A stretch of DNA of 64,000 nucleotides from an uncultured bacterium (GTDB lineage Bacteria > Desulfobacterota > Binatia > UBA1149 > CAITLU01), in contig CAITLU010000013.1 of NCBI GenBank assembly GCA_903893315.1, positions 155,026-219,025 of the forward strand, written 5' to 3'. This document shows positions 14,640 to 41,733 of the stretch, piece by piece. A model generated the notes under the pieces. The model was not told where the DNA came from and made no database searches. It saw only the letters and a list, made by a program, of their open reading frames with translations. The number at the start of each line of letters is the position of its first letter. Position 1 is the stretch's first letter. Position numbers and translations under genes: made by a program.

Positions 14640-14824
14640 GGATGTCGAAGCCCGATGCGCTCGCCCTTGTTACCCCGCCGTAGCGCAAGCAAGGACGAAC
14701 CGCCGCTGAGCGTCGCGCACGCTATCACAGCAACCCCGCGGAACGCAGGCGTCCACTAGGTACGCCGCAGCGACCGAGTCGTCGCCCAACGCCGCAGATG
14801 GCCCCTTATGGACAGACTGCCTCC

Positions 14825-23830: not shown

Positions 23831-24907
23831 ATGGACCCGGACATCCGGCCCATGGCACGCGATTTGCTTCTCACCACTGCCAATGGCGAAACGGAGTGCA
23901 GAATGAGGCGAGCAAGTCCCAAGGTAATCGACGCGGCGTCCGCCTCGCCGACGCGGTCGGTTGCAGCGGGCGACGCGGCTGATGGCGGCGCCGCGACCGA
24001 TTCGCCGCTACCCGACAAGATCCCGCGTTTCCTGAGAACCGAGAGGTTGCTGCACTGGGCACTCGCCTTGCCGTTCCTCGGCTGCCTCTTCAGCGCTGTC
24101 GCGCTGGTCGTCGTCTACAACCCGGATCCGACGCGACCTTACCGCTACGTCTTCGCCTGGGCTCACCGCGGCTGTGGTGCCGCACTGTTCATCCTGCCGA
24201 GCCTCGTCCTGCTCACCAGCGGACGCCACATGCGAGTGCTGCTCTACAACATCCGCCAGGCGTGGGGCTGGAGACTCGACGACATCAAGTGGCTGATGCT
24301 GATGGGCCCGGCCACCGTCTTCAAGCGGATCGTGCTGCCCGACCAGGGCAAGTTCAACGCTGCCGAAAAACTGAATTTCATGATGGTGATGGTCTTTACC
24401 CCGCTTTTCATAGCCAGCGGCATCGCGATCTGGCTGCCCGACTACACTTCGCTCGACCCGTTCGCACCGTGGATGTTTCACTGCGCCCTGGCCGCAACCG
24501 GACTGCCGCTGATTCTCGGCCACATGTTCATGGCCATGATCAACCCCGAAACTCGCGTCGGGCTGAGCGGCATGATCACCGGCTCGGTGAGCCGAACCTG
24601 GGCCCAGCATCACTACGCGCGCTGGTATCGCGAGCAGTTTCCCCACCTGGTCGCTGCCGGCGGCGACCACCACAAATCCGGCGCTGAACCGGCAACTGCG
24701 GCGGCCGTGGATGGGCAAACGTCGCCGGAGGTCACATCGAATGAATTGGAGCAACCGCGCGATGCGACAATGCGGGCCGCTGAGAGTAGGGTGGCGTGCG
24801 AAGACGAATATGAATCGAGCGATCCCGGGGGGGACGAGGCTGGATGTGTCCGCGAGGCGTATTTCGCCAGCGATGCAGGTGCTTCGAGAGACGTGATGGC
24901 GCCCTGA
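23831..24907 (+). CDS. Di-heme b-type cytochrome, membrane subunit (FdnI/HydC Ni/Fe-hydrogenase b-cytochrome family)
   Basis: Four predicted transmembrane helices carry His in TM1 (LHWALALPF), TM2 (AWAHRGCG) and twice on TM4 (FHCALAATGLPLILGH). The NAAEKLNF motif is present. The exact start is uncertain. The C-terminal tail is acidic. Confidence 0.7.
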   Translation: MDPDIRPMARDLLLTTANGETECRMRRASPKVIDAASASPTRSVAAGDAADGGAATDSPLPDKIPRFLRTERLLHWALALPFLGCLFSAVALVVVYNPDPTRPYRYVFAWAHRGCGAALFILPSLVLLTSGRHMRVLLYNIRQAWGWRLDDIKWLMLMGPATVFKRIVLPDQGKFNAAEKLNFMMVMVFTPLFIASGIAIWLPDYTSLDPFAPWMFHCALAATGLPLILGHMFMAMINPETRVGLSGMITGSVSRTWAQHHYARWYREQFPHLVAAGGDHHKSGAEPATAAAVDGQTSPEVTSNELEQPRDATMRAAESRVACEDEYESSDPGGDEAGCVREAYFASDAGASRDVMAP

Positions 24908-24996
24908 TTGCATCACTGCCGCTACCCGCAATTTATTGCGCGCATCCGCGATCCTTTGCGCGATTTTGTGCGCGGATATCGGCAGTGAAAGTTCGG

Positions 24997-26499
24997 ATGG
25001 CCACCCTCATGGCGTTCACGAGCGCGTTGTTGGCCGCGGTGCCTGGGATCGTGCGTAACAAATGGAAAGGCGCCCGTCGAAGCTCCGCACGTCGGTTTCA
25101 CACGAATCTAACGACGACGTGTGGACGATGGCATTCGCCATGTGTTCTGCTGTGCCTGATGCTGCTCACTAGCACACCGATGGTCTTCCGTTCCACACCG
25201 GCACGGGCCTCCTGGGTCGAGTCGCTGGTCATGCCGGGCGAAGTCGCGGCCAAGCACGCCAAGATCGAGCACGAATGCACCAAGTGTCACGCACCGCTCG
25301 ACAAGGTGGCGCAGGAAAAACTTTGCCTGGACTGCCACAAGGAGGTGGCCGCGGATCTGCTCGAAAAGCGCGGGTTCCACGGCCAGTCACCCGATGTCAG
25401 CGGACGGCCGTGCAAGACTTGCCACGCCGAGCACAAGGGACGCACCGCCGACCTGGTGCATCTCGACCGCGACAAGTTCGACCACCGGCTGACCGATCAC
25501 CCGCTGGTCGGCGCCCATCTGCTGGCGAAATGCGACGGCTGCCACAAATCCGACAAGCGCTTTCGCGAAGCGCCTCCGCACTGCAGCGACTGTCACACCG
25601 CCAAAGATCCGCACGAAGGTACCCTCGGGCTCACCTGCAACAACTGCCACGATGAGTCAGCCTGGAAATCAGTGCGCTTCAACCACGACACCGTTGCCTT
25701 TCACCTGGAGGGCCGCCACCGTGAAGCGCACTGCGATGACTGTCACAAGACTCGCCTTTTCAAGTCCACCGCGACGGACTGCTTCTCGTGCCACGAGCGC
25801 AAGGACGATCACCACGGCAGCTTCGGCCGCGACTGTCAGTCCTGTCACACGACGCGCGGGTTTGCCGGCACGACGTTCGACCACGCCCGCAAGACGAAGT
25901 TTCCCCTGGTCGGAAAGCACGCGCACGTCGCGTGCGGGAAATGCCACAAAAACGGGCTTGCCGCAGCACTCACGCCGACCAACTGCCACGACTGCCACGA
26001 GTACGACGCGAGCCGTCACGGACTGTTCGGGAGCAAGTGCGAGAGTTGCCACACGCCGGACGACTGGCGGCGCACGATCTTCGACCACGACCGGGACACT
26101 CACTTTCCGTTGCGCGGCCACCACGTCGGTCGCCGCTGCACCGACTGTCACCGCTCGGACCTGCGCGTGGAACGCCCCGACCAGAAGTGTGTCGGCTGCC
26201 ATCGCGACGACGACGTCCACCACGGTCGCCAGGGCACCGACTGCAAACACTGCCACGACGAACGCGGCTGGAGTCGCGACGTGCTGATCGACCACAACGC
26301 AACCCGCTTTGCGCTGACGGGCGCGCATGCGCGGACAGCCTGCCTGCGCTGCCACCAGTCACCGCAGTTCAAGGAAGTCGCGCTGGAGTGCGTCGGCTGT
26401 CACAAGGAAGACGCCTCCGCGCACCGCTGCGAACGCGGCAGCGATTGCGCTCGCTGTCACGACACCTCCAACTTCCACACGATCAAGGCGGCCCACTGA
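24997..26499 (+). CDS. 18-heme c-type cytochrome made of six tandem tri-heme cytochrome c7-type domains
   Basis: There are 18 CxxCH motifs in a periodic pattern of about 75 aa: F-x-H-x(2-3)-H ... CxxCH ... CxxCH ... CxxCH, repeated six times. The start and signal peptide position are uncertain. Confidence 0.85.
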   Translation: MATLMAFTSALLAAVPGIVRNKWKGARRSSARRFHTNLTTTCGRWHSPCVLLCLMLLTSTPMVFRSTPARASWVESLVMPGEVAAKHAKIEHECTKCHAPLDKVAQEKLCLDCHKEVAADLLEKRGFHGQSPDVSGRPCKTCHAEHKGRTADLVHLDRDKFDHRLTDHPLVGAHLLAKCDGCHKSDKRFREAPPHCSDCHTAKDPHEGTLGLTCNNCHDESAWKSVRFNHDTVAFHLEGRHREAHCDDCHKTRLFKSTATDCFSCHERKDDHHGSFGRDCQSCHTTRGFAGTTFDHARKTKFPLVGKHAHVACGKCHKNGLAAALTPTNCHDCHEYDASRHGLFGSKCESCHTPDDWRRTIFDHDRDTHFPLRGHHVGRRCTDCHRSDLRVERPDQKCVGCHRDDDVHHGRQGTDCKHCHDERGWSRDVLIDHNATRFALTGAHARTACLRCHQSPQFKEVALECVGCHKEDASAHRCERGSDCARCHDTSNFHTIKAAH

Positions 26500-29183
26500 T
26501 GGCAACGCCGAAGCACATCGCTCTGTGGATCAGTGTTCTGCTTGCCGCTTTGTCGGCGGCGCCGCTGCATGCCGCCTGCACGGGCGGAGGAACTTCGGGC
26601 CTGGCCCCGCCGGCAGTTTCTTTCCTGCGCAGTTACCGCGCCCCGTTCGGTGCGCCGACTCGCATGGCGGTCGATGCTTCCGGAAAGATCTATGTGACCG
26701 ATCCCTCGCAGGGACAGGTCGTCGTGCGCGAAGCGAGCGGGCGGATCATCTCGCGTGCGACCGTCGCAACGCGCCCGGTGAGCGTCGCGGTCAACGCTGC
26801 CGGCCGCGTCTATGTTGGCGATTCAACTTCGGGCAGCGTCACCGCCTACGACTCAGAGTGGAACGCGGTGCTGCGATTCGGCCGGGGCGACGGCGAATTC
26901 CAGCAACCGAGCGATCTGTCGTTGGAAGCCGCCACCGGCGACGTCTACGTCGCCGACAGCGCGGCCCAACTGGTGAAGGTCTACAGCGCCGACGGCATTT
27001 TCCTGCGTTCATTCGGCGGGCAGGGTAACGGCGACGGCGAATTCAACTACCCGGTAGGCGTATTCGTCGACGCGCCTGCGCGCCGTGTGCTGGTAGCCGA
27101 CCAGCTCAACTATCGAATCCAGGTCTTCGATCTGAGCGGCACTTTCGTCAGTTGCTTCGGCGGGCACGGCAGCGGCGCGGGGAATTTCAACATGCCGCAG
27201 GGCGTGACGGTCGACGGCCTGGGCCGCGTGTACGTCGCCGATGCCGTCGAAGGACGCGTCCAGGTGCTCGACCGCAGCGGCGACTTCGTCGGCTTCATCG
27301 GTGACTTCGGCGACGACGCCGCGCAACTGCGCATTCCCATCGGCATGGTCATCGATCCGTCCAACAGGTTGTTCGTCGCCGCTTCCAACAACGCGCGTCT
27401 CGAAGTGTTCGGGCTCGACACCTTCGCCGATCCGGAAACCATCCTGCCCGCCGTGGTTCGGGTGGAGCCGGAAATGATCGAGCGGGCCACGCCGGGAAAC
27501 TCGATCGGCGCGTACCTGGAAGTGCCGGGATACATGCTCGACCGCATCGACGCCGCCAGCATTGTCGCGAACGGCGTTCCCGCGCTGCCGGGTACGAACT
27601 CGATCGGCGATGGGAATGGTGACGGCGTTGCCGACCTGCGCGTCGAGTTCGCTCCCACGGCTTTGCTGGCCACTCTTCCCGCCGGCGGCATCGGCGGCAT
27701 CGCCATCTCCGGAACTTTGTCCGGCATTCGCTTCGAGGGATCGACGACGGTTCGTGTGAGCACCTGCGGGCCCACCACGGTGTGCCCGCTCGGTGCAGCC
27801 GACCCTCAGTGCAACGAAGCCGTGTGCGACGCGGCAACCGGTTGCACCGTGCGGCCGAAAAACGACGGCGCCGGTTGCGAAGACGGCAGTGCCTGCACGA
27901 TGGACGACGTCTGCGCCGCTGGCATATGCACCGGTGCGACGCTGGCCTGCAACGACGTCAACGTCTGCACCGACGACGGCTGCGACACCGCTGCCGGTTG
28001 CGTCTTCGCCGCCAATACCGCGCCGTGCGACGACGCGAACGCCTGCACCACCGACGACACCTGTGCAGCACAAACCTGTTCGGGCGCGGCGATAACGTGC
28101 AACGACGGCAATGCCTGCACCGACGACGGCTGCGACACCGTGACCGGCTGCGTATTCGCCGCCAATAACGCACCGTGTGACGACGCGAGCATCTGCACCA
28201 CGGACGACACATGCGTGGACGGCGTCTGCACGGGAACGCGGATTTCCTGCAATGACGGCAACCTATGCACCGACGATGTCTGTGATCCGCTGGCCGGCTG
28301 CACGCACGCCGATAATCGCGGACCTTGTGACGACGGCGATCCGGGAACGGTAGCCGACACCTGCGACGGCAACGGTCTGTGCCGTGGCCAGACCGCGACA
28401 GGCCAATACGCGATCCTGCAGTGGCCCCCGGAATCGTCCGGGCGCCGGACGGTGACGATTGCGGCTCGTGGCCTGGTCGGCGGCAACGTGTGCGCCGAAA
28501 ACATCAGCATCGGCCGATCGGTCGAGGTGAACGGCGACGTTCTGGCCTGGTCGCCCGTCGATCGCGCGCTCAGCTTGCGTTCCGGCGTCTGGATCGACGG
28601 CAACGTCGTGAGCGGCGGCGGAGCGATTACCGGCCTCGAATTCGCAACCATCGGCGGCCTGGTCGATTCGGCCGGCGGCACCGCCGAATTCGAAGACTGC
28701 TTCGCTGCACGCTACCAAGCCGCGCAGCGCCGCGCCGAGTTCGTGACGTTGCTCCCCACGCCCGGAATGACCACGGGATCGCTGCGGCTCGGCGTGTTGG
28801 AAGAACGGCGAATTCCCGAGACGGGAGACGTCGGCAGCGGCCTGATCGTGATCGACGCCGACAGCATCAACCTGGCGACCTCGAGTCGGCTGACGATCGT
28901 CGGCGACGCATCAACCGAACAGGTCGTGGTCCGCGTTCGCGGCCGGCTTATCCTGGAACGCGGCGCGAGCATCGTCGTCGAAGGATTTCCGGCAGAGCGA
29001 CTGATCTTCGTGGTGGACGGAACAATCAACCTGCGGTTGCAGACGCGCGTCGATGGTTCGCTGTTCGGAGCCGGGACGGTCCGGATCGGCAGCGGCGGCG
29101 CGGTCAGCGGCGCGGTCATCGGCCGCACCGTCGACCTGGCTCATTCGGCAAGTATCAATCTGCAACCGTTCGTGGGGTGGTGA
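26499..29183 (+). CDS. Secreted NHL-repeat beta-propeller protein with cysteine-rich tandem repeats and a C-terminal beta-helix-like region
   Basis: The ATG overlaps the upstream TGA (ATGA). The signal peptide is MATPKHIALWISVLLAALSAAPLHAAC. NHL blades are present (YVADsxnxRVqVfD-like, about 6). Four repeats of about 51 aa follow, of the form CNDGNxCTDDGCDtxxGCvfaaNxxPCDDxxxCTTDDTC. A G/V/I-rich repetitive tail ends the protein. Confidence 0.8.
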   Translation: MATPKHIALWISVLLAALSAAPLHAACTGGGTSGLAPPAVSFLRSYRAPFGAPTRMAVDASGKIYVTDPSQGQVVVREASGRIISRATVATRPVSVAVNAAGRVYVGDSTSGSVTAYDSEWNAVLRFGRGDGEFQQPSDLSLEAATGDVYVADSAAQLVKVYSADGIFLRSFGGQGNGDGEFNYPVGVFVDAPARRVLVADQLNYRIQVFDLSGTFVSCFGGHGSGAGNFNMPQGVTVDGLGRVYVADAVEGRVQVLDRSGDFVGFIGDFGDDAAQLRIPIGMVIDPSNRLFVAASNNARLEVFGLDTFADPETILPAVVRVEPEMIERATPGNSIGAYLEVPGYMLDRIDAASIVANGVPALPGTNSIGDGNGDGVADLRVEFAPTALLATLPAGGIGGIAISGTLSGIRFEGSTTVRVSTCGPTTVCPLGAADPQCNEAVCDAATGCTVRPKNDGAGCEDGSACTMDDVCAAGICTGATLACNDVNVCTDDGCDTAAGCVFAANTAPCDDANACTTDDTCAAQTCSGAAITCNDGNACTDDGCDTVTGCVFAANNAPCDDASICTTDDTCVDGVCTGTRISCNDGNLCTDDVCDPLAGCTHADNRGPCDDGDPGTVADTCDGNGLCRGQTATGQYAILQWPPESSGRRTVTIAARGLVGGNVCAENISIGRSVEVNGDVLAWSPVDRALSLRSGVWIDGNVVSGGGAITGLEFATIGGLVDSAGGTAEFEDCFAARYQAAQRRAEFVTLLPTPGMTTGSLRLGVLEERRIPETGDVGSGLIVIDADSINLATSSRLTIVGDASTEQVVVRVRGRLILERGASIVVEGFPAERLIFVVDGTINLRLQTRVDGSLFGAGTVRIGSGGAVSGAVIGRTVDLAHSASINLQPFVGW
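27948..28390 (+). repeat. Intragenic tandem DNA repeat (about 150 bp unit, about 3 copies) encoding the cysteine-rich modules
   Basis: Units beginning tgcaacgacg...ctgcaccgacgacggctgcgacacc recur at 27948, 28098 and 28248, with decreasing identity. Confidence 0.6.
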
Positions 29184-29191
29184 AGACGTCG

Positions 29192-30580
29192 ATGGCATCG
29201 AAGCTGACAGCGTTCTCGTGGCTGCTCCTGACGTGGGCGGCGTACGCGTCGGGGCCGGCATACGCGCTCGACCCGCCGCACGACGTCAGTCGGTCGATCG
29301 ACTGCGCCAGTTGCCACATCTCGCACCATGCGGCGGGCGGCTCGATCACCCGGATCAGCGGTAACTCCAACCTGTGCGCGAGTTGCCACTCGGCCGGCGG
29401 CGTTGCGGCCACAAGCGCGCTCGCCAACAGCGACCAGGCGATCCCCGGCGTGAGCGGCACTTCACACCGCTGGGATTCCGGCGCGTCCGGCTGGGTGAAG
29501 AAGAATCCCGCCAACACCTCGACCGGAACGGTGCGCTCCACCGGCGTCTTCACCGGGCGCTATCGCAAGACCTACACGATCACCATCACCGCCGACGGTG
29601 TCGGCAACGCCGGTGGTGCCCAGTTCGCGTGGACCACGTCCACGCCGCAGCGCAATACGTACCTCGATGCGTTCCCAGCGCTGGCATACAACGGCAGCAG
29701 CGGCACGCAGGATTGGAGCGCAACCGCATGGCAGGAGAGCGGCGAGGCCGACGGCGTTGCCGCCGGCGTCGTGCGCGTCGTGACCAACGCCGCGTGCGCC
29801 GCCGGCAACTGCCTTCGCGTGGGCGGCGTAATCATCAACGGCATCAGCGTGGCGCGTGCGGCCGATCTTCACGCGGGCACGGCCGCCATGCTGACGTTCA
29901 GCTACCGCCGCCAGCTTGCTGCCTGTCCAAATACGAACACCGACGGGGTGGCGCTTCAGGTAAGCGCGGACGCTGTTTCGTGGACGACGCTGGCTACTTA
30001 CGTGCTGAACGCGTGCGATGCAGCGCAGGTGGAACAGGCCTTCGACGTCACGGCCTACATCGCGGCGACAACCGCGATTCGCTTCCTCGGTACCGGAACC
30101 AGCGCAGCCACCGACTTCATCTACGTCGACGACGTGCAGATTGAGAACCTCGTTGCCGGCGGCGGCGCCGCCGGCGTTTCGGCTGCCGGCACCGTAGCCC
30201 TCGACGAGGGCATCAGCGTGACGTTCGGCAACGGGACATCATCGCCCTACTTCAAGCTCGGCAGCCAGTGGACCGTCTACGCCAACCCGGACATCAACCA
30301 GCCGACGTCCTTCGCTCTTGCCGCGCGCCTGGCTAATGAAAAGGTCACCTGCTCCACCTGCCACAACGAGCACAGCCAGTTGGCTGAGCCGTTCGATCTG
30401 GCGGCGCCGGCCTACCCGTTGACGGGGAACGGCGGGGAGGGACGACACAACCAGCGTCTCGACAACGACATCAACCAGATATGCGTCGACTGCCACAGTG
30501 CGCGCAACGTCACCGCGGCGCAGAGTTCACATCCGGTGGGAATCGTCATCCCCGCCACCGGCTCGTACAAGAACCCATAG
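29192..30580 (+). CDS. Tetra-heme c-type cytochrome with a large non-heme central domain, secreted
   Basis: The signal peptide is MASKLTAFSWLLLTWAAYASGPAYA. Two CASCH motifs lie near the N-terminus, and CSTCH and CVDCH lie near the C-terminus. They flank about 300 aa of beta-rich sequence with no heme motif. Confidence 0.8.
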   Translation: MASKLTAFSWLLLTWAAYASGPAYALDPPHDVSRSIDCASCHISHHAAGGSITRISGNSNLCASCHSAGGVAATSALANSDQAIPGVSGTSHRWDSGASGWVKKNPANTSTGTVRSTGVFTGRYRKTYTITITADGVGNAGGAQFAWTTSTPQRNTYLDAFPALAYNGSSGTQDWSATAWQESGEADGVAAGVVRVVTNAACAAGNCLRVGGVIINGISVARAADLHAGTAAMLTFSYRRQLAACPNTNTDGVALQVSADAVSWTTLATYVLNACDAAQVEQAFDVTAYIAATTAIRFLGTGTSAATDFIYVDDVQIENLVAGGGAAGVSAAGTVALDEGISVTFGNGTSSPYFKLGSQWTVYANPDINQPTSFALAARLANEKVTCSTCHNEHSQLAEPFDLAAPAYPLTGNGGEGRHNQRLDNDINQICVDCHSARNVTAAQSSHPVGIVIPATGSYKNP

Positions 30581-30588
30581 GATCCACC

Positions 30589-31971: not shown

Positions 31972-32394
31972 TCCACGCACCGCGGTCTCACTCGCCACGT
32001 CGAATACGTGCGCCGCGCGTTTACGCGCTCCGTGCGCCGCCGGCCCTGAGCACCTTTTGGCGAATCGTCGAGCATCCGAAGACTACCGTGCGATCCTGCA
32101 AGTACGGCGCGTTAGCGCGCAAACAATTGCTCGGTTCGGGGCTCGCGCATCAGGACGGTTCGTTGACTTCGCGTCGGCTGCGGCCGGATTGGGTTGGCCC
32201 GCGATACCTGAAATCACCAGGGCACCGGAAATGCGCGCCGACGATGCTGCGTCCTGGAACAGGCAGAATGCGGCGAAAAACAACGCGAAGACTCCATGAA
32301 CGCTTCGGACAGGCTCTCGTCCGCCATCGTCTCGATTTTGCCGAAAGCATCCGGCAGCGGGTTGGCTCGCGTGTTGCTTATCAAACGACCTCTC

Positions 32395-33486: not shown

Positions 33487-33604
33487 GCCGCTGGGGGAGG
33501 GGCGTATTCCGGCGAATGATGCGCGAAGTCGGACATCGAGAAATACAAACGAAGCTAGAGAGCGTGAAACGAACAGACGGAAAGGAACGATAGGAGGTTC
33601 CATC

Positions 33605-34255
33605 ATGAAAAGAGGAAGATCATTATTAATCGCCGCATCCTTGCTGGTGCCAACCATGGCGTCGGCGGGGACCATCGCCAACACGAAGCACGACTTGAGC
33701 GCGACCTCGACCGCGGTGATCAAGTCGGGGACTCAAACCGACACCTGCGTGTTCTGCCACGTATCGCACAGCAGCGCTCCGGGCGTGGCGCGGCCGTTGT
33801 GGAGCCACACGATGACCACCCAGAACCTGACCTGGGCGCCGACCACGACGGTGCGCGGGACGGTACTGCCGACCGCGATCACCAGCGCAGCGCTGACCGG
33901 CTCACGTTCATGCATGAGTTGTCACGACGGGACAGTCGCGCTCGGCGATCTGCTCAACGGAACCGGCGGCACCGTCAGCGGAACCAACGTCACGGCCGGC
34001 AAGCTGACCGGTGGCATCAACCTGCTCAACCCGGCATCGATGCAGAGCAACCATCCGATCGGTGTTGCCAAGCCGGCGGCGGCCACCGGCTTCACGGCCT
34101 TCAAGACCGTCGCGGCCAGCAGCCCCGTCAACTACGATTCGTCCGGTTTCGTACAGTGCGACTCGTGCCACAACCCGCATGACAACACCTTCGTGCCGTT
34201 CCTGAGGATCAGTCCGGCGGGCGGTGCGATCTGCACCTCCTGCCACGACATCTGA
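33605..34255 (+). CDS. Tetra-heme c-type cytochrome, small secreted (216 aa)
   Basis: A strong RBS (taggagg) sits 8 nt upstream of ATG 33605. The signal peptide is MKRGRSLLIAASLLVPTMASA. CVFCH, CMSCH, CDSCH and CTSCH are present. The N-terminal motif TKHDLS...CxxCHxSH...PLW is shared with the 39045 cytochrome. Confidence 0.85.
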   Translation: MKRGRSLLIAASLLVPTMASAGTIANTKHDLSATSTAVIKSGTQTDTCVFCHVSHSSAPGVARPLWSHTMTTQNLTWAPTTTVRGTVLPTAITSAALTGSRSCMSCHDGTVALGDLLNGTGGTVSGTNVTAGKLTGGINLLNPASMQSNHPIGVAKPAAATGFTAFKTVAASSPVNYDSSGFVQCDSCHNPHDNTFVPFLRISPAGGAICTSCHDI

Positions 34256-34352
34256 CCACGGTGCCAATGCGGCGGAGAATGCCCTCTAGTGATTGGGATT
34301 CCCCGCCGCAACGGTCTAGTAGTTGACCCCTGGAGTTCGGACCCGGGGGGGC

Positions 34353-34682
34353 ATGGTGACGAGTAGAAACTTCTGCGGAATCCTTTCGCTCGTCGTTCTG
34401 TGCGTGTCGCTCGTTGCAGCGCCGGGATCGGCAACCACGCTCGGCGACATCATCTACTCGCGCAAAGCCGGCCCGGGAGATTGGGCCCCGGCCTACTTCC
34501 CGCACTGGGTCCATCGCATCAAGTACAAGTGCTACGCGTGCCACGACACGCTGTTCCCCATGCGGCGCGGCGGTAATCCGACAATGGCGGGGATGTCGAC
34601 CGGCGCTTCGTGCGGCGCGTGTCACAACGGCAAGACTGCCTTCGGGCTGGACACCTGCCAGCGATGCCACGTTTCGCAATGA
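34353..34682 (+). CDS. Tri-heme cytochrome c7 (PpcA-like periplasmic carrier)
   Basis: A signal peptide is followed by FPHWVHRIKYKCYACH...CGACHNGKTAFGLDTCQRCH. The three CxxCH motifs have c7 spacing. The mature protein is about 80 aa. Confidence 0.85.
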   Translation: MVTSRNFCGILSLVVLCVSLVAAPGSATTLGDIIYSRKAGPGDWAPAYFPHWVHRIKYKCYACHDTLFPMRRGGNPTMAGMSTGASCGACHNGKTAFGLDTCQRCHVSQ

Positions 34683-35938
34683 GGCACCGCGCGACGATCT
34701 GCATGATCGTCGCGCTCGTCGCGGCTGCCGGAGGCTGCAGCCGCGAAACGCGCTACCGCGCGCTCGACGTTTTGTTCGAGGGCGTCCCGCCACCCGGCCA
34801 GGTCGTCAGCAACGAACCGGTCACGCATCGTCCTCGTCGTTCGCCTCCACCTCCTCCGATTCCGCCTCCCGTCGCGTTCACGCCGCTGCCGCCCAACGCA
34901 GGCCTCGCGTCGCTGCAAACCTGGGACGACGTCGTGCGACTGCTGCCCAAAGACCAGGCCGGCAATCCGGACTGGACTGCGGCGGTCGACGAAAAAATGA
35001 TCGCCCCGCGTTCCGTACTGGACCCCGACTCCGCGGAGTCGGAAGCGATCACTCTTGACGCCCTCGATGCTTCGTCGGTCGCTCCGGATGTCGAACTCGC
35101 CGCCAAGTCGGATCCGGCTTTCGATGTCTCCTTCTCACACCGGAAGCACGGGACCTGGCTGAGCTGCGGGAACTGCCACCCTGCCCCCTTCGAGAAGAAA
35201 GCCGGGCAGACGCCGATGACCCCGGCCAGCGTGCACGCACAAGAGTACTGCGCTGCCTGTCACGGCAAGGTCGCGTTCGACATCGGACCCAATTGCCTGT
35301 CGTGCCACCTTCGCACCATGCCGCGCGACGCGGCCGGACAGGTAGATTGGAATCGCGCACTGGATGAGCAGCGCATCGCGCCGCGCCCTGGACCGGGATC
35401 TAAAACCGTCGATCAGGAGGTTCTCAAACTCGATATAGAAATGACGCCGCCGGCCCAGCCCGCGTTTGCGTCGGTATTTTCACACGGCACACACACGCGG
35501 TTGATAGCTTGCGCCAGTTGCCATCCGAGTCCCTACTCGGCCAAGGTTCGCACGGCGATGACCGACACCGCCGAACTGCATTCGTCCCGCTATTGCGGTT
35601 CCTGCCACGGCACGGTGTCGTTTGGAATCACCGGATTCTGTCAGCGCTGCCACCCGGCTCTCGAAAAAGCGCGTCAGCACCAGGAAACTCTGGACCTCGA
35701 TGTGGCGGTGACGCCCAAGGCGCAGACCGGCGGCGCCACGACGTTCTCGCACAAGCAGCACCGCTGGGTGGAGTGTGCCACCTGTCACAGCAACCTCTTC
35801 ACCAACACGCCGGGGGCAACCACCATGCCGAAGGCCGATATCTACGGCGGCAAGTACTGCGCCCCCTGCCACGGCAAGGTGACCGACGATCTCACCGTCA
35901 GTTGCCGGCGCTGTCATTCGGGCGGTGACGCCCGATGA
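34679..35938 (+). CDS. Nona-heme lipoprotein cytochrome (three tandem c7-type domains behind a Pro-rich linker)
   Basis: The ATGA overlap is with the c7 gene. The lipobox-like sequence is VALVAAAGGCS, followed by a PPPPPIPPP linker. The module FSH(x)xH...CxxCH...YCxxCHG...CxxCH is repeated three times. Confidence 0.85.
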   Translation: MRHRATICMIVALVAAAGGCSRETRYRALDVLFEGVPPPGQVVSNEPVTHRPRRSPPPPPIPPPVAFTPLPPNAGLASLQTWDDVVRLLPKDQAGNPDWTAAVDEKMIAPRSVLDPDSAESEAITLDALDASSVAPDVELAAKSDPAFDVSFSHRKHGTWLSCGNCHPAPFEKKAGQTPMTPASVHAQEYCAACHGKVAFDIGPNCLSCHLRTMPRDAAGQVDWNRALDEQRIAPRPGPGSKTVDQEVLKLDIEMTPPAQPAFASVFSHGTHTRLIACASCHPSPYSAKVRTAMTDTAELHSSRYCGSCHGTVSFGITGFCQRCHPALEKARQHQETLDLDVAVTPKAQTGGATTFSHKQHRWVECATCHSNLFTNTPGATTMPKADIYGGKYCAPCHGKVTDDLTVSCRRCHSGGDAR

Positions 35939-35963
35939 CCGGCAGCACACTTGCGGCATCGTG

Positions 35964-37979
35964 ATGAAGCGCGCCGCACGGCCAGCGATCGCGTGCGGCG
36001 TTCTCGCGTGCATGGTGCTCACCATCACGCCTGCGGCCGAGGCCGGACTGAACTGGGGGCTGGGTCGCTGGGAAGGCGACACCACGCTTCTCGTGAACTG
36101 GGAAACCCAGCACGACAAACGGACTCAGGACCGTTACGACACGCTTCTCTTCGAAGAGCGCCTGCGTCTGCGCAACACCGGCGCCTTCATCTTCGATCCG
36201 CGCTTGCTGACGCTCAATCTCAGCGGATCGTTCGGAGCGCCTCAGGAAATGGCGCTGGGGCACACCGACACGTCGCTGCGGGTGGGCAACGGAACTCTGT
36301 TCGACTATGCCTTCGAGGGCCTGGTCCTGGCGGATACGGCTTACCCGACCACTCTGTTCGCCACCCGCAGCCAGACCATGCTTACGCAGGGCTTCGGCGG
36401 TCGCTCTGATCTGACCTTCCAGAGCTTCGGCGGCACCTTCGATCTGCACGAAAACAATTTCCTCGAGGCCCGCGGGTGGCGCGGATTGACCGCGACGCTG
36501 GACGCCCGCGAGGAGTCGCTCCTCGAAAATTCGTCGTATTTCGGCAGTCCGTTCAAACGCGACGAGACCCGACAGATAGTCAACGCGCAGGCGCACCGCT
36601 CCGGCGAGAACTCGGACCTCGATCTGCACTACGAACTCAACTCCGTAAGCGACCCGCTCAACCCGTCGAACGTATTCGACAGCCACACATTTCGTGCGAC
36701 TCACAGTCTCGACTTCGGTCCCACGCTCAACCGGCGCCTCGACTCGGGACTCTATTCCTTCATCCGCAGCGGCGCATCGAACGGCAGTTACGTGTCGGCG
36801 AGCGAGGCTCTGCACGTCGACCACCATCGCGACTTCTCGACCAACTATCGCTACGACTTTTCCCAGAGCGATTCGGAATCCGGCACCACCACTACCAATA
36901 CCGCCAACGCCACGCTGCTGAGGCGGTTCTATCGCAACCTCTCGACCACGCTCGGCGCGCGCGGATCACTGCAGAATTTCCCGAACGGCGACAAGTACCT
37001 TTACGGAGGCGAGGCCGGCGCCGACTACCGGCGCGCGATTCCCGGCCAGGGGCAACTGTTCGCGGACACCCACCTCGGTTACGAGGTTGACAACAACAAC
37101 TTCACCTCGTCGTTCGTCGATGAACCCGACGAAAGGCAGACGGTTCCAATCGATGTCGGCACCGGCGCCGGGTTCACCCTGACTCATCCATTCGTGGTCA
37201 TCGGATCGATCGTGGTGGTCGACCTCGGTCCCGACGGCAACTCGCGCTTCGACACCATCGTCAACCGGGACTACCTCGTCGTCGCGGAAGGCAGCCGCAC
37301 CCGGATCGTGCCGTTGCCCGACAGCCCCGTGCTTCGCGCCGGCGATCAGTTGTCGGTGAGCTACACCTACACCATCGCGCCCAGTCTCGAGTATTCAACC
37401 TTCGACACGAGCATACGCACCGGTCTGGAATTCCCGTGGCTTTCGCTATCCTACGAACACATGATGAGCGATCAGACGCGTCTGTCCGGGACTTCCGCCC
37501 CGCAATTCCTGATCGATCAGAACGCGGACCGGTTTCAACTCGAGCTGAGGAGCCGGTGGAAACGCCTGCTCGCGCAATCGGCGGTCGATTACGAAATTCT
37601 CAAATCGTCGATCGTCGACTCCAACGGATTGCGCTTCGGCCAACTTCTCGTCTACCAAATCAACGCCGGCCTGGTCGCGGAGTTGACCGCTGACGAGAAC
37701 TTCGTCGACTACCCGAAAGAAAATCGCAGTTCCGAGTCCTACCTGGCGCGGGCTTCGATCGACTGGACGGCCTTCGAAGGGCTTTCCGCTTCGCCTTTCA
37801 TCGACTACCGTAGTTTTCACGACTCGACCGTCATGAGCGACGTTGTCGTCGAGGCCGGAATGCGCCTGCACTGGACCTATCGAAGCGTGGACATCTTCCC
37901 AACTGTCACCTGGACCGACTATCGCAACAGGATGGATGGCGTTCATGCCGAACTGCGCATCACCCGACGTTTCTTCTGA
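35964..37979 (+). CDS. Outer-membrane beta-barrel protein (putative porin of a porin-cytochrome conduit)
   Basis: The signal peptide is MKRAARPAIACGVLACMVLTITPAAEA. The protein is about 670 aa with Y/T/S/G/N-rich alternating beta-strand texture. The C-terminal ...ELRITRRFF ends in an aromatic Phe, the OMP sorting signature. Confidence 0.7.
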   Translation: MKRAARPAIACGVLACMVLTITPAAEAGLNWGLGRWEGDTTLLVNWETQHDKRTQDRYDTLLFEERLRLRNTGAFIFDPRLLTLNLSGSFGAPQEMALGHTDTSLRVGNGTLFDYAFEGLVLADTAYPTTLFATRSQTMLTQGFGGRSDLTFQSFGGTFDLHENNFLEARGWRGLTATLDAREESLLENSSYFGSPFKRDETRQIVNAQAHRSGENSDLDLHYELNSVSDPLNPSNVFDSHTFRATHSLDFGPTLNRRLDSGLYSFIRSGASNGSYVSASEALHVDHHRDFSTNYRYDFSQSDSESGTTTTNTANATLLRRFYRNLSTTLGARGSLQNFPNGDKYLYGGEAGADYRRAIPGQGQLFADTHLGYEVDNNNFTSSFVDEPDERQTVPIDVGTGAGFTLTHPFVVIGSIVVVDLGPDGNSRFDTIVNRDYLVVAEGSRTRIVPLPDSPVLRAGDQLSVSYTYTIAPSLEYSTFDTSIRTGLEFPWLSLSYEHMMSDQTRLSGTSAPQFLIDQNADRFQLELRSRWKRLLAQSAVDYEILKSSIVDSNGLRFGQLLVYQINAGLVAELTADENFVDYPKENRSSESYLARASIDWTAFEGLSASPFIDYRSFHDSTVMSDVVVEAGMRLHWTYRSVDIFPTVTWTDYRNRMDGVHAELRITRRFF

Positions 37980-38001
37980 TCCGCCTTGCGGCACCCGGCC
38001 G

Positions 38002-39048
38002 GTGGCTGCGGCCGGCCGGCGCTGGGCGCGCGGACTGGCGTTGGCGGCGCCGGCCCTGCTCGCTGCGGCCGCGGCTGCCTGCTCGTCGGGTTGGCCGACC
38101 CACGGCCAGCCCGCGGAGCCCGCGCGGATGGTGTGGCCCGAAGCGCCGGACGCGCCTCGCATAGAACTGGTTTCCACGTTCAGCGCCGGCTCCGATCTCG
38201 GCATCGAACTCTCCATATGGTCGCGTATTGCCAACGTCATTTCAGGCGGCGGCGAAACGCGGATGGTACGCCCCAGCGGCGTGAGTGCCGCCGGCGGACG
38301 CATCGCGGTGGCCGATCCGGGAGCCGGACTCGTTCACCTCTACGATCCGGCCCGCCGCCGCGCTCTGGCGCTGCGCGAGTGTGGTGACACGGCGCTCGCA
38401 GAGCCGGTCAGCGCAATTCTGCTCGGCGAGCGCCTGTACGTGGCCGACGCGAGCGCGGCGCGCATTTTCGTATTCGATCTCGACGGCGCCTGCATAGCCG
38501 GCTGGCCGCTTGAAGAGGGATCGCGTCCGGCCGGGTTGGCGGCCGACCCCGCGCGGTCGAGAATCTACGTGGCGGAAGCCGCATTACATCGCGTCGTCGT
38601 CTACGATCCACAGGGCAACAGAGTTCTGGAAATCGGCCGCCGCGGCGCCGCGCCCGGCCAGTTCAATTATCCAACTTGGCTGGCAGTAGACGACGCCGGT
38701 AACATATACGTAACGGACGCGCTCAACTTCCGGGTGCAGATCTTCGATCCGGAGGGCCGGCCGACCGGCGTCTTCGGTGAGCAAGGCGACGCCTCCGGAG
38801 CGCTGTCGCGACCAAAGGGCATAGGTATCGATCGTCATGGGCACATCTATCTGGTCGATGCTCTTTTCGACGCCGTGCAGATGTTCGATCGCGAGGGCCA
38901 CTACCTGATGGTCTTCGGCGGCAGCGGCCGCGAGCCGGGGCTTTTCTGGCTTCCTTCCGGCCTCGCCGTCGATGGCGACCGCATCTACGTTTCGGACTCG
39001 TACAATCAGCGGGTGCAGGTGTTCCGCTTCCTGGCAGACGAGTCATGA
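38002..39048 (+). CDS. NHL-repeat beta-propeller protein (probable lipoprotein)
   Basis: The GTG start gives MAAAGRRWARGLALAAPALLAAAAAAC-SSG. The NHL blades are LYVADASAARIFVFD, IYVAEAALHRVVVYD, IYVTDALNFRVQIFD, IYLVDALFDAVQMFD and IYVSDSYNQRVQVF. Confidence 0.75.
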   Translation: MAAAGRRWARGLALAAPALLAAAAAACSSGWPTHGQPAEPARMVWPEAPDAPRIELVSTFSAGSDLGIELSIWSRIANVISGGGETRMVRPSGVSAAGGRIAVADPGAGLVHLYDPARRRALALRECGDTALAEPVSAILLGERLYVADASAARIFVFDLDGACIAGWPLEEGSRPAGLAADPARSRIYVAEAALHRVVVYDPQGNRVLEIGRRGAAPGQFNYPTWLAVDDAGNIYVTDALNFRVQIFDPEGRPTGVFGEQGDASGALSRPKGIGIDRHGHIYLVDALFDAVQMFDREGHYLMVFGGSGREPGLFWLPSGLAVDGDRIYVSDSYNQRVQVFRFLADES

Positions 39049-40754
39049 CGCTGCGCCTGTTCGCCTGTCTCGCCGTTCTCTTGATGCTGGCCGCGGCCGG
39101 CGCGGCCCAAGCCGGCCTGCGTGAGACCGCGCACAACCTGAGCCCGAGTGCAGTCGGAGGCCGCTCCTCAGCTTCCGCAGCCGTGGCTCCATCTATCGAC
39201 GGTACCGACAGCGACCTCTGCGCGTATTGCCACACGCCACACTCGGCAAAGACCCAGCGCGGTCTGTGGAGCCGCGCTCTGGCGCCCGCGCGCTACAAGC
39301 TCTACGAGAGCAGCACCACCGAAGCGAAACTGCAGCAACCGAACGGAAGCTCGCGTCTGTGTCTGTCCTGCCACGACGGCACCATGGCCGCCGGATCGAC
39401 GTCGCGTCAGGGTGGAGCGGCGGTCAGCAAGTTGACCGGTCGCAGCGTGCTCGGCACCGATCTTTCCGACGACCACCCCATCTCGTTCGTCTACGATCAA
39501 TCACTGGTCACCCGGCGACGGGATCTCGCCAACCCGGCGTCCCTGATCGGCGGTGTCCGCCTCGACTCGAGCGCGCAGGTCCAGTGCACCTCGTGTCACG
39601 ACGCGCACGCAGACCGTCATCCGCAATTCCTCGTCGCCGATCCCGCGTTTTCGCGACTGTGCCTGACCTGCCACCGGCCGCAGCACTGGCAGGAATCGGC
39701 ACACGCGACTTCACCGACCAGTGCTCTCGGCGCCGGATCGTTGCCCGGGCTGGGCTACGCGACCGTCGGCGAAAATGGCTGCTCGAGCTGCCATCGCTCC
39801 CACGGCGCCGAGCACCCTCAGCGCCTGCTCACATCAGCAACGGAAGAAGGGGTCTGCTTCAATTGTCACGACGGCCGCATCGCCGAGAAGGATATGCGGC
39901 GCGAATCGCGCAAGTTCAGCGCGCATCGAGTCGACGTGTACACCGATGTCCACGACCCGACCGAAAACCCCAACCACATGCCGATGCACGTCGAGTGCAT
40001 CGACTGCCACAACGCTCACGCAGCGCGCGCCGACTCCGGCGGCGGACCGATGCCCGGCCCTCTCACCGGTGTATCGGGCGTGACCGTCTCCGGCGGTTTC
40101 GTGCGCGAGGCGACTTTCGAGTACGAAGTCTGTCTGAAGTGCCACGGAATAAGCGAAGCGCGCGACCCAGTGGTGTTCCGCAACGACAGCCCGAGCAATC
40201 TGCGGATGAAGATCAACCCGCAGAACGTCTCGTTTCACCCCATCGCCGACGTCGGCCGCAACCCCACCATCGCGGGCCTGGTCTCGCCGTGGACTCCGGC
40301 CAGCCGTACGTCGTGCACCGCGTGTCACGACAACAACTCCGCCGACCGCAGCGCACCGCGCGGACCGCATGGTTCCAATTACCGACCTATCCTCGCTGCC
40401 GAGTATCACCTCGACGCGACGCCGGGCAGGGAGTCATATCAACTCTATGCCCTGTGTTATCGCTGCCATGACCGCAATACGCTGCTCGACCGCCACGAAG
40501 GCTTCCCGCACCGGTCGCACGTCGTCGACGACGGCGCGAGCTGCGCCGTCTGTCACGACGCTCACGGTTCGCCCCACAACGCGCACCTGATCAATTTCAT
40601 GCGCCGCGACCTTACCGGCAAGGAGGTCGTGCTGCCGTCCGTCAAGACCGGCCGCCTCGAATACATATCGAATGCGCCGGGGTCAGGTCAGTGCTCGCTC
40701 AGTTGCCACGGATACGATCACAACGACGCGAAGTATCCTTCACAAGGCAGGTAG
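39045..40754 (+). CDS. Dodeca-heme c-type cytochrome, secreted
   Basis: The ATGA overlap is with the upstream NHL gene. The signal peptide is MTLRLFACLAVLLMLAAAGAAQA. There are eleven CxxCH motifs plus CSLSCH. The N-terminal TAHNLS...CAYCHTPH...LW motif is present. Confidence 0.85.
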   Translation: MTLRLFACLAVLLMLAAAGAAQAGLRETAHNLSPSAVGGRSSASAAVAPSIDGTDSDLCAYCHTPHSAKTQRGLWSRALAPARYKLYESSTTEAKLQQPNGSSRLCLSCHDGTMAAGSTSRQGGAAVSKLTGRSVLGTDLSDDHPISFVYDQSLVTRRRDLANPASLIGGVRLDSSAQVQCTSCHDAHADRHPQFLVADPAFSRLCLTCHRPQHWQESAHATSPTSALGAGSLPGLGYATVGENGCSSCHRSHGAEHPQRLLTSATEEGVCFNCHDGRIAEKDMRRESRKFSAHRVDVYTDVHDPTENPNHMPMHVECIDCHNAHAARADSGGGPMPGPLTGVSGVTVSGGFVREATFEYEVCLKCHGISEARDPVVFRNDSPSNLRMKINPQNVSFHPIADVGRNPTIAGLVSPWTPASRTSCTACHDNNSADRSAPRGPHGSNYRPILAAEYHLDATPGRESYQLYALCYRCHDRNTLLDRHEGFPHRSHVVDDGASCAVCHDAHGSPHNAHLINFMRRDLTGKEVVLPSVKTGRLEYISNAPGSGQCSLSCHGYDHNDAKYPSQGR

Positions 40755-41656: not shown

Positions 41657-41733
41657 CGGGGTGTAGCTCAGCCTGGTAGAGCACTGCGTTCGGGACGCAG
41701 GAGCCGGAGGTTCAAATCCTCTCACCCCGACCA
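41657..41733 (+). tRNA. tRNA-Pro (anticodon CGG)
   Basis: A cloverleaf was folded by hand. The acceptor stem CGGGGTG/CACCCCG is present, with D-stem GCTC/GAGC and anticodon stem CTGCG/CGCAG. The loop TTCGGGA has CGG at positions 34-36. The T-arm is GGAGG-TTCAAAT-CCTCT, with discriminator A and an encoded CCA. Confidence 0.9.

Follow-up and report, generated by a model that had tools for sequence, protein, structure and literature searches.

A probable OmcE/Uet-type cytochrome cluster

The region between positions 23831 and 40754 of the window, by which we mean the entire 64,000-nucleotide stretch of DNA analyzed here, probably encodes a trans-envelope multiheme cytochrome system of the OmcE/Uet type. 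From sequence comparisons we estimate the probability of this reading at roughly 0.7. It is supported by homologies, predicted folds, predicted export signals and conserved gene order. The order of the carriers, the placement of a cytochrome in the outer-membrane barrel, the polymerization of g7 and the direction of electron flow (outward or inward) may be as proposed below.

The system would consist of three parts. A conserved core (g6 through g12) would comprise g7, the NHL proteins g6 and g11, two periplasmic c7-type cytochromes (soluble g8 and lipid-anchored g9), the barrel g10, and g12. The products of g1 and g2 would tie this module to the quinone pool, and those of g3 through g5 would form an accessory surface unit. 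The carriers would be arranged from the quinone pool through g1, g2 and g8/g9 to a cytochrome held in the g10 barrel (g12 and/or g9), and on to g7, which would sit outside the cell and may polymerize in the manner of OmcE. For the NHL lipoproteins we propose a part in assembly or scaffolding and no redox role.

The initial annotation had described twelve co-directional genes with about 60 c-type hemes, and the counts agree: the 17-kb region carries twelve genes on the + strand, and g2, g4, g5, g7, g8, g9 and g12 together carry 60 heme-binding motifs (58 CXXCH and two CXXXCH). Six-frame translation places every one of these 58 CXXCH motifs on the + strand; the - strand of the region has none, and the remaining 47 kb of the window contain four. 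This concentration is far beyond chance. The families anticipated from the open reading frames (Ni_hydr_CYTB, Cytochrome_C7, Paired_CXXCH_1 and NHL) were all matched in searches with Pfam and TIGRFAM/NCBIfam models, with Cytochrome_C7 or nanowire_3heme domains in g2, g8 and g9, and Paired_CXXCH_1 domains (Pfam) in g4, g5, g7 and g12. The N-termini of g2 through g12 resemble signal peptides by inspection, and lipoboxes occur in g6, g9 and g11. The proposed set of exported 4-, 4-, 10- and 12-heme cytochromes is consistent with both the motif counts and these N-termini. Start codons are uncertain for g1, g2, g6 and g11. Three ATGA overlaps had been proposed; those at 34679 and 39045 are present, but at 26499 the g2 stop and g3 start share a single nucleotide (TGATG).

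Homology to the filament cytochrome OmcE

By sequence comparison, g7 is assigned to the OmcE family and g12 carries an OmcE-like N-terminus, a homology that the initial annotation overlooked. The g7 product (33605..34255, + strand; 216 aa) is a tetraheme cytochrome and candidate filament subunit that matches both solved OmcE proteins over its full length in phmmer searches of the PDB (9yuq_N, 3.8e-23; 7tfs_A, 5.5e-22). Its four CXXCH motifs and four further histidines (29, 55, 150 and 192) align with both structures, and all eight heme-ligand histidines of OmcE are conserved. In OmcE itself, one heme takes its histidine from the neighboring subunit. The g12 product (39045..40754, + strand) is a 12-heme cytochrome (11 CXXCH and one CXXXCH) in which an OmcE-like tetraheme unit (residues 8-206) is followed by an eight-heme extension, as evident by matches of the family profile over positions 8-206 to 7tfs_A (6.1e-41) and 9yuq_N (1.9e-32). 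We found 4,731 homologs of g12 and at least 597 genome loci.

This homology bears on an alternative in which the cluster encodes a classical Mtr/Pcc porin-cytochrome conduit that forms no filament, with g12 or g9 inside the g10 barrel, g7 acting as a monomeric surface or periplasmic tetraheme protein, and the NHL proteins only stabilizing the complex. A ninth histidine (position 68) is found in 72% of g7-type homologs at a site occupied by arginine in the proven filament formers, and filaments have been seen only for the OmcE proteins of Geobacter and Desulfuromonas (bioRxiv 10.1101/2025.10.22.684050). The arrangement also matches the published Uet model, which combines a barrel with an undecaheme cytochrome and places UetA outside the cell as a tetraheme protein. 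Moreover, MtrB is the solved barrel most like g10 by aligned length and TM-score. However, we consider a conduit of this kind unlikely. Every heme ligand of OmcE is retained along the full length of g7, and the parts list is the one by which nanowire-competent OmcE homologs have been selected (bioRxiv 10.1101/2025.10.22.684050). In addition, the MtrB_PioB family found no match in the cluster at the threshold used, and g12 scores only 63.9 bits against the DmsE/MtrA family model, for which the cut-off is 192.2 bits.

A large barrel from an unannotated family

The outer-membrane barrel suggested earlier, for which a topology prediction had been advised, is borne out by a confident AlphaFold2 model (pLDDT 86.9) of g10 (35964..37979, + strand), which predicts a large beta-barrel of about 28-30 strands with a conserved insert of ~80 aa (residues 394-470). 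Searches of g10 against Pfam, NCBIfam and PDB sequences gave no match, and the family, whose profile recovers 2,047 representative clusters, is unannotated in that it has neither a Pfam nor an NCBIfam model. Structural comparison with Foldseek returned outer-membrane barrels only, with MtrB giving the longest alignment and the best TM-score (0.42). MtrB has 26 strands, compared with about 28-30 in g10.

The analogy drawn earlier to the Mtr and Pcc conduits needs to be divided. The cluster has in common with MtrCAB/MtoAB and the Geobacter Pcc systems (OmaB-OmbB-OmcB, Ext) the logic of an envelope-spanning multiheme system in which a large barrel holds a cytochrome. Membership in the Mtr families by sequence was rejected from the MtrB_PioB search at the threshold used and from the DmsE/MtrA score.

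It is also conceivable, though doubtful, that the barrel and the NHL lipoproteins act mainly as an usher-like secretion or assembly machine, such that electrons cross the outer membrane solely via the base of a secreted polymer. The NHL propellers carry no redox motif, and Foldseek matches the barrel to the pilus ushers FimD and PapC. The barrel of OmcE clusters is itself described as ‘putatively’ serving secretion or anchoring (bioRxiv 10.1101/2025.10.22.684050), and roles in secretion (OscE, OscF and OscG) and in filament morphology (OscD) have been proposed for proteins encoded with OmcS (Shen et al., 2025). However, the ushers (TM 0.25-0.30) match no better than other large barrels and fall below MtrB, and the roles of machine and conduit are not exclusive. 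The conserved 12-heme gene beside the barrel suggests a resident cytochrome. Against our preferred explanation, the AlphaFold2 model of g12 (pLDDT 37) is unusable and gives threading through the barrel no structural support.

NHL and c7 proteins of the core

Two core genes encode six-blade NHL propeller lipoproteins. These are g6 (32395..33486, + strand, with an alternative start at 32296; Pfam NHL 3.9e-25; lipobox VAGC) and g11 (38002..39048, + strand; Pfam NHL 1.9e-28; lipobox AAAC). The c7-type proteins proposed previously, an 18-heme wire, a free tri-heme c7 and a nona-heme tri-c7 lipoprotein, are recovered as g2, g8 and g9 by motif counts and by Cytochrome_C7 and TIGR04257 matches. PpcA-like g8 (34353..34682, + strand; TIGR04257 6.1e-22; Pfam Cytochrome_C7 1.3e-15) has a family profile that recovers PpcA of G. 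sulfurreducens (1.8e-9). Overlapping g8 by ATGA, g9 (34679..35938, + strand) encodes a lipoprotein (lipobox AGGC) with a proline-rich tether and three c7 units (TIGR04257 2.9e-41, in three stretches). It matches PDB 3ov0 (1.9e-20), which is GSU1996, a 12-heme c7 polymer.

Relationship to known systems

Pairing of cytochromes with NHL proteins, initially set apart from the described Pcc/Mtr/Ext architectures, has already been published for OmcE, Uet and Desulfovibrio ferrophilus DFE clusters. OmcE clusters encode two beta-propeller lipoproteins, a large barrel and multiheme cytochromes (bioRxiv 10.1101/2025.10.22.684050), and the clusters of G. sulfurreducens and Desulfuromonas soudanensis (PDB 7TFS, 9YUQ) have the same parts list as g6 through g12. 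The NHL lipoprotein of the G. sulfurreducens OmcE locus matches the g6 profile (8e-100) and has in common with g6 an N-terminal FWPxxPxxPRI motif. An 11-heme protein at that locus is homologous to the C-terminal regions of g5 and g12 (8e-40) but, unlike g12, has no fused OmcE-like domain. A 752-aa protein lacking a Pfam match adjoins omcE; comparison with g10 gave no hmmsearch match and an hhalign probability of 0.3%, a result that weighs against our preferred explanation. The cluster described here also differs from that of Geobacter in gene order, in having c7-type cytochromes within the module and a cytochrome b linked in cis, and in having no glycosylation genes.

The Uet system of Ca. Tenderia electrophaga and some Gallionella, compared by description only, has similar types of parts: tetraheme UetA, a barrel (UetC, 28 strands predicted), tri-heme c7 proteins (UetD/E/G), NHL proteins (UetH/I), and UetJ, an 11-12 heme cytochrome with doubled CXXCH motifs. 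In our cluster the PPIase (UetB) and cupredoxin (UetF) are absent and gene order differs from that of both Tenderia and Geobacter, which we also weigh against our preferred explanation; the c7 units here form a single nona-heme lipoprotein. Likewise by description, D. ferrophilus IS5 interleaves cytochrome and NHL beta-propeller genes (DFE_0448-0451 and DFE_0461-0465). The NHL proteins were noted there in 2018 (as DFE_448-451 and DFE_461-465), and homologs of these clusters are reported to be widely distributed. They are described as having no apparent porin, in contrast to the g10 barrel here. Deletion of related cytochrome genes in D. ferrophilus left Fe(III) oxide reduction in place, which we weigh against our preferred explanation.

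The fold of OscD is reportedly beta-propeller-like. The osc cluster, likened here by description as an idea, encodes a filament cytochrome together with channel-like and morphology or assembly proteins; OmcS is a hexaheme protein unrelated to OmcE in sequence.

Recurrence of the core

Co-occurrence was assessed in a survey of loci from 80 species of many phyla, among which 52 loci were informative (those whose sequence extends 7.5 kb or further upstream). A g11-like NHL gene adjoins the homolog of 12-heme g12 in 79 of the 80 species. Among the informative loci, the barrel is present in 49, an OmcE-like small cytochrome in 48, and the full set (the six-part core, that is, all four parts with two NHL genes) in 42. 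In the comparative check advised earlier, the core recurs and the inner-membrane component differs among relatives. We conclude that g6 through g12 represent a widespread, already described kind of module. Particular to this window are the in-cluster cytochrome b with its 18-heme wire, the NHL/cysteine-repeat/cytochrome unit g3 through g5, and the barrel family that lacks a Pfam or NCBIfam model.

A proposed inner-membrane link and the possible directions of electron flow

The g1 product (23903..24907, + strand, with an alternative start at 23831) had been proposed as an FdnI/HydC-type cytochrome b with two hemes. This assignment agrees with a match to Pfam Ni_hydr_CYTB (3.6e-13), four hydrophobic segments, and a 1+1+2 pattern of histidines (51, 88, 193 and 207) that by sequence corresponds to that of FdnI. 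The match to TIGR01583 (formate dehydrogenase gamma; 1.7e-22) reaches 80 bits, below the 116-bit cut-off. Downstream, g2 (25051..26499, + strand, with a start between 24844 and 25159) encodes a c7-type polymer with 18 CXXCH motifs, a predicted periplasmic wire (Pfam Cytochrome_C7 2.5e-18, in four stretches). It has no match among PDB sequences; g9, rather than this 18-heme protein, is the match to GSU1996. Cbc complexes likewise combine a b-type membrane protein with a multiheme c partner, and g1 and g2 may in this respect be likened to Geobacter CbcBA. Homologs of g2 with 18-23 hemes adjoin membrane proteins in L002, L027, L005, L032 and L048. The partner is of the FdnI type in this window and L027, of the b/b6 type in L005, and an unassigned four-helix protein in L002 and L032. 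The inner-membrane partner is therefore not conserved among relatives, which counts against our preferred explanation.

Flow from quinol to the outside, as first proposed, is an assumption; by analogy with Uet systems, which are thought to run inward, the opposite may hold. The cluster would then draw on Fe(II), reduced minerals, cathodes or partner cells as electron donors and feed the quinone pool or periplasmic acceptors, and would not respire extracellular acceptors. We regard this as a serious possibility, at somewhat less than even odds. Uet is proposed to oxidize extracellular donors in Tenderiales and is also present in iron-oxidizing Gallionella, DFE clusters have been linked to electron uptake, and many carriers of the module belong to Burkholderiales, Rhodocyclaceae, Sulfurifustaceae, Methylomirabilis and Nitrospiraceae. 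Against it, FdnI-type cytochromes b work in either direction and heme potentials are not fixed by sequence. Geobacter OmcE serves outward transfer (bioRxiv 10.1101/2025.10.22.684050).

The accessory unit

Three NHL proteins had been claimed, one with cysteine-rich repeats, and NHL domains are indeed found in g3, g6 and g11. The g3 product (26499..29183, + strand; 894 aa) is predicted to be an exported propeller (Pfam NHL 6e-27) with cysteine-rich tandem repeats resembling Dicty_CTDC (6.5e-9) and a DUF7305 tail (1.9e-5).

Because g5 and g6 lie 423 nt apart, two independent transcription units are possible, which counts against our preferred explanation. A further alternative is that g1 through g5 and g6 through g12 are unrelated neighbors, the g3 propeller being an adhesin-like surface protein beside a 14-heme cytochrome. 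Consistent with such a separation, an opposite-strand gene parts the g4-g5 homolog from the core in L002, where g3 is absent, and homologs of g1 and g2 lie downstream rather than upstream of g12 in L027. However, we find it improbable that the units are unrelated. In at least five further loci, a g2-like polymer and a membrane partner lie no more than 10 kb from the module, all 12 genes here occupy one strand, and a terminator search gave no signal above background. Moreover, g5 and residues 178-556 of g12 are paralogous (BLASTP, 31% identity, E 3e-42).

This g5 product (30589..31971, + strand) is a 10-heme cytochrome (nine CXXCH and one CXXXCH) with its own signal peptide and Pfam matches to Paired_CXXCH_1 and MtrC/MtrF II/IV. 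The neighboring g4 (29192..30580, + strand) encodes a 4-heme cytochrome in which two paired-CXXCH units flank a non-heme insert of ~300 aa, with no significant match among PDB sequences. We describe g4 and g5 as a split 14-heme cytochrome; their homologs form a single fused open reading frame of ~900 aa in L002, L004, L063 and L065.

Gene content and heme motifs

The region between window positions 23831 and 40754 is filled by twelve genes (g1 to g12), co-directional as described in the initial annotation and all located on the + strand, and the annotation's estimate of about 60 c-type hemes agrees with the 58 CXXCH and two CXXXCH motifs carried by their products. Six-frame translation reveals that all CXXCH motifs within these limits are on the + strand, and that the other 47 kb of the window contain only four more. 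Searches with Pfam and NCBIfam models likewise return the domain calls made initially. The g1 product is a Ni_hydr_CYTB or FdnI-like protein; g2, g8 and g9 carry c7-type tri-heme domains; g3, g6 and g11 carry NHL repeats, to which g3 adds cysteine-rich repeats and a DUF7305 domain; and g4, g5, g7 and g12 are composed of doubled-CXXCH units. The c7 domains score above cut-off in g8 (TIGR04257 / PF14522, 77.6 bits), g9 (139.5 bits across three domains) and g2 (Pfam C7, 66.1 bits), and g2 yields no sequence match in the PDB.

Signal-peptide-like N termini, as judged by a heuristic rather than by a SignalP result, are found on g2 through g12, as had been claimed for the cytochromes, and heuristic searches also place lipoboxes on g6, g9 and g11. 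Lipobox-like signals recur by the same heuristic among homologs of g6 (27 of 41), g9 (14 of 19) and g11 (67 of 92). Two of the three ATGA start/stop overlaps reported earlier are present (34679 and 39045), but at 26499 the genes overlap by 1 nt only, as TGATG.

OmcE-like units in g7 and g12

The 216-amino-acid tetraheme cytochrome g7 aligns through residues 6-215 with residues 4-217 of the solved D. soudanensis OmcE (9yuq_N, E 3.8e-23), and through residues 7-214 with residues 9-230 of the solved G. sulfurreducens OmcE (7tfs_A, E 5.5e-22). Its four CXXCH motifs and histidines 29, 55, 150 and 192 align with counterparts in both solved proteins. Judged by sequence, g7 is thus homologous to the OmcE nanowire subunit over its full length.

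Positions 8-206 of a g12 family profile match OmcE (E 6e-41), and the OmcE-like cysteines and histidines of this head are invariant in 32 diverse homologs. Because of the profile match and these invariant residues, we consider g12 to consist of an OmcE-like unit with eight further hemes behind it. Within OmcE filaments, a histidine from the neighbouring subunit serves as ligand to one heme. Proteins of the g12 type might form the membrane-embedded base of OmcE-type filaments, with the eight-heme tail seated in the barrel and the OmcE-like head presenting the histidine-heme interface at which free OmcE-like subunits (g7) polymerise, although we give this reading only slightly better than one chance in five. 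If it is true, the g12/barrel module would be a pan-bacterial nanowire machine, and here a single cluster would hard-wire it to a cytochrome b of the quinone pool. An AlphaFold2 model of g12, made from a 32-sequence alignment and without hemes, was unusable (pLDDT 37, pTM 0.22), as expected for a protein modelled without its hemes.

A ninth histidine, within a PLWSH motif (g7 His68, window positions 33806-33808), is present in 72% of the OmcE-like homologs gathered from the loci of other genomes described below, and this position is occupied by arginine in proven filament formers and in the g12 head. It has been speculated that a nine-histidine, four-heme OmcE-like protein could cap filaments (Bond/Wang 2025, bioRxiv 10.1101/2025.10.22.684050).

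The barrel protein g10

The g10 product has no Pfam or NCBIfam match at E values up to 0.01 and no sequence match in the PDB. Its AlphaFold2 model, built from 45 homologs, is confident, with a mean pLDDT of 86.9, and is all-beta with approximately 28-30 long strands, giving the barrel topology that the initial annotation had proposed; the predicted terminal phenylalanine is likewise present (...RRFF). The highest Foldseek TM-score is with MtrB (0.42), and this likeness is one of fold only, as g10 matches no MtrB/PioB porin family model.

When 1.84 billion representative proteins are searched with a g10 profile, 2,047 clusters match at E values up to 1e-3, of which 639 score at up to 1e-30, and the closely related ones are encoded in Binatia and 'Deltaproteobacteria' metagenome-assembled genomes. 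The family is thus large (some 2,000 clusters at the 50% identity level), with neither a model in Pfam or NCBIfam nor a sequence match to a solved structure.

A conserved mini-domain of some 80 residues is inserted into g10 behind approximately strand 18 (residues 394-470, window positions 37143-37373), and it holds many family-invariant residues (L406, D436, Y437, G443, D461 and Y467). Strand parity in the model suggests that the insert would face the periplasm, where it could act as a plug or docking site.

Distribution of the conserved core

The g12 family comprises 4,731 matches, and a scan of one genome per species places its members in at least 597 loci from many phyla. The best 80 of these loci come from Binatia, Methylomirabilis, Beta- and Gammaproteobacteria, Nitrospirota, Myxococcota, Verrucomicrobiota, Kiritimatiellia, Planctomycetota, Desulfobacterota-type orders, Calditrichota, Zixibacteria, KSB1, Hydrogenedentes and Bacteroidetes. 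By profile searches, an NHL gene adjoins the g12 homolog in 79 of the 80.

Upstream gene content was counted in the 52 informative loci, each of which offers at least 7.5 kb of upstream sequence. A member of the barrel family is present in 49 of the 52, a small OmcE-like cytochrome with four or five hemes in 48, and two NHL genes in 42; the barrel, OmcE-like cytochrome and two NHL genes occur together in 42. The c7-type cytochromes corresponding to g8 and g9 are found in 16 of the 52, mainly in Binatia, Proteobacteria and Methylomirabilis. These loci were picked by similarity to g12, such that the counts describe what travels with g12 rather than an unbiased census. OmcE homologs had been listed from five phyla, and the comparative data point to a much wider spread of the core than this.

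Many remote loci (including L039, L045, L064 and L079) carry two or three OmcE-like paralogs, some of which have five CXXCH motifs. These five-motif paralogs match a '5-heme OmcE-like' group that has been proposed as a possible new nanowire family (10.1101/2025.10.22.684050). The barrel, NHL and 12-heme module is also present in the complete genome of a cultured isolate, Planctomycetales bacterium ZRK34 (CP050848.1, 318612-340270), where several further multiheme cytochromes lie nearby. This organism is a possible experimental host.

Relationship to known outer-membrane cytochrome systems

An OmcE cluster has been defined as one in which genes for an OmcE subunit, a large beta-barrel and two each of multiheme cytochromes and beta-propeller lipoproteins lie together (10.1101/2025.10.22.684050), and the same list of parts is supplied here by g8, g9 and g12, by the lipobox-bearing NHL proteins g6 and g11, by g7 and by g10. 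The barrel and propeller lipoprotein have also been used to pick nanowire-competent OmcE homologs (10.1101/2025.10.22.684050). The omcE locus of G. sulfurreducens is arranged as purHDE, ppcA, resB, ccsB, an 11-heme cytochrome gene, an 8-heme cytochrome gene, an NHL gene, omcE, a gene for a 752-amino-acid protein and glycosyltransferase genes. The NHL lipoprotein of this locus scores 8e-100 against the g6 profile and shares an FWPxxPxxPRI motif after the lipobox, and the OmcE encoded there is homologous to the corresponding component of the window at 1e-53. The 11-heme protein matches the C-terminal part of g5/g12 (8e-40), but it has no OmcE-like head. The 752-amino-acid protein beside omcE has no Pfam matches, and it is not recognizably related to g10, as evident by the lack of an hmmsearch match and an hhalign probability of 0.3%.

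The Uet cluster of Ca. Tenderia electrophaga contains the tetraheme UetA, the barrel UetC (28 strands predicted), the c7 proteins UetD/E/G, the NHL proteins UetH/I and the undecaheme UetJ. The window has the same types of parts, likened by description and not by sequence. Neither a peptidyl-prolyl isomerase (UetB) nor a cupredoxin (UetF) domain is present among its 12 products. Gallionella homologs of the Uet system have 11-12 hemes and doubled CXXCH motifs. Cytochromes are also paired with NHL propellers in the DFE clusters of D. ferrophilus, and the companion cluster of OmcS is built on the same principle. The NHL pairing that was initially regarded as undescribed is therefore not new.

Membership in the Mtr family is not supported, as there is no MtrB_PioB match at E values up to 0.01 and the TIGR03508 model for MtrA/DmsE decaheme cytochromes falls far under its cut-off of 192.2 bits, with g12 as its best match (63.9 bits) and all others at 33 bits or less. 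The window cluster is an outer-membrane cytochrome system of the OmcE/Uet kind with some variant features. The interpretation given in the initial annotation, a complete quinol-to-extracellular pathway, is supported in part; its view of the NHL pairing does not stand, and the OmcE homology of g7 and g12 had been overlooked.

Proposed electron path

Homologies, predicted folds, predicted export signals and conserved gene order are direct results of this analysis, and from these we infer a path for electrons. The g1 protein would exchange electrons with the quinone pool, and the 18-heme g2 would ferry them over the periplasm. The 12-heme protein GSU1996 is approximately 12 nm long, and so the 18 hemes of g2 could span much of the periplasm. 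Relay would then proceed by g8 and the outer-membrane-tethered g9, and the outer membrane would be crossed via a cytochrome, with g12 the likeliest, seated inside the g10 barrel. The g7 protein would be the external element, possibly a filament, and the NHL lipoproteins would serve as assembly factors or scaffolds.

Electron flow is outward for OmcE in Geobacter (10.1101/2025.10.22.684050), and inward flow has been proposed for the Uet and DFE systems. Nanowire export, anchoring and electron feeding are stated to be open questions (10.1101/2025.10.22.684050). The cluster offers a 17 kb natural example that encodes inner-membrane entry, periplasmic wires, a barrel and propeller lipoproteins, together with one OmcE-like subunit and the 12-heme protein with its OmcE-like head, and it suggests a capacity for extracellular electron exchange in a lineage that, judged from its named relatives, is probably Binatia-related.

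A variable inner-membrane partner

Assignment of g1 as an FdnI/HydC-type cytochrome b holds, as evident by a PF01292 score of 50.1 bits against a gathering cut-off of 30.1. The protein has four hydrophobic segments and histidines at positions 51, 88, 193 and 207, which is the 1+1+2 pattern of FdnI in the E. coli Fdn-N structure. It falls short of the equivalog model for formate dehydrogenase gamma subunits (TIGR01583, 80.4 bits against a curated cut-off of 115.85), and no formate dehydrogenase alpha or beta genes are present near it.

The membrane partner encoded beside the g2-like c7 polymer is not conserved between loci. It is an FdnI-type cytochrome b in the window and in L027 (11583-13496), and a cytochrome b/b6-type protein in L005 (4499-5704). 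In L002, a near relative, genes for an 18-heme protein like g2 and for a His-rich, four-helix membrane protein of 303 amino acids (4060-4971) come before the core; the membrane protein has no similarity to g1 and belongs to no Pfam or NCBIfam family; g3-g5 do not intervene between this pair and the core. The partner in L032 (2447-3976) is also a four-helix protein outside these families, and is not similar to that of L002. The stop-to-stop open reading frame with the g1 homolog in L027 (11583-13496) also matches, further upstream and in frame, the adenylation domain of an NAD-dependent DNA ligase, which is probably a ligA fragment or an artefact of merged reading frames.

The g3-g5 unit

Genes g3-g5 look like an accessory surface branch. 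The g5 protein is paralogous to g12, with which it aligns over g12 residues 178-556 (31% identity, E 3e-42). In four other loci, the counterpart of g4 plus g5 is one open reading frame of about 900 amino acids with 13-14 hemes (L002:1-2439, L004:3-2411, L063:13675-16629 and L065:5255-7960), and relatives with this fusion include Verrucomicrobiota and Kiritimatiellia. In the window (29192-31971), g4 and g5 are separate genes lying 8 nt apart, and a complete signal peptide of its own has been gained by g5; the split is a clean gene fission and not a frameshift error. That g4 is an OmcE homolog with an insert is a suggestion; its matches to g7 are short and motif-level (E ~1e-3), and it has none in the PDB.

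Genomic setting

The cluster is flanked by rsmB and rpe, with priA, def and fmt also upstream and genes for a DnaJ/TerB protein and P-II, as well as glnA, also downstream. These flanking genes place it in the core chromosome. It occupies other positions in relatives, and its G+C content is slightly lower than that of its flanks.

The sole long gap in the cluster is a 423-nt non-coding stretch between g5 and g6 (window positions 31972-32394), where the promoter for the conserved core (g6-g12) may lie; neither an Rfam match nor a sigma-70-like site is present in it. The search for promoter-like sites gave none, and that for terminator-like sites gave 11 against 12.5 expected, which is uninformative. 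The only Rfam match is to a tRNA outside the cluster, and a tRNA gene lies directly downstream of rpe (41657-41730).

One of the four CXXCH motifs outside the cluster belongs to a small Haem_bd (PF14376) protein encoded on the - strand (44794-45351). Approximately 7.5 kb upstream of the cluster, also on the - strand (12927-16351), a gene for a PilQ-type secretin precedes one for a shikimate kinase / dehydroquinate synthase fusion. This is the classic pilQ-aroKB arrangement and is probably part of a type IV pilus locus.
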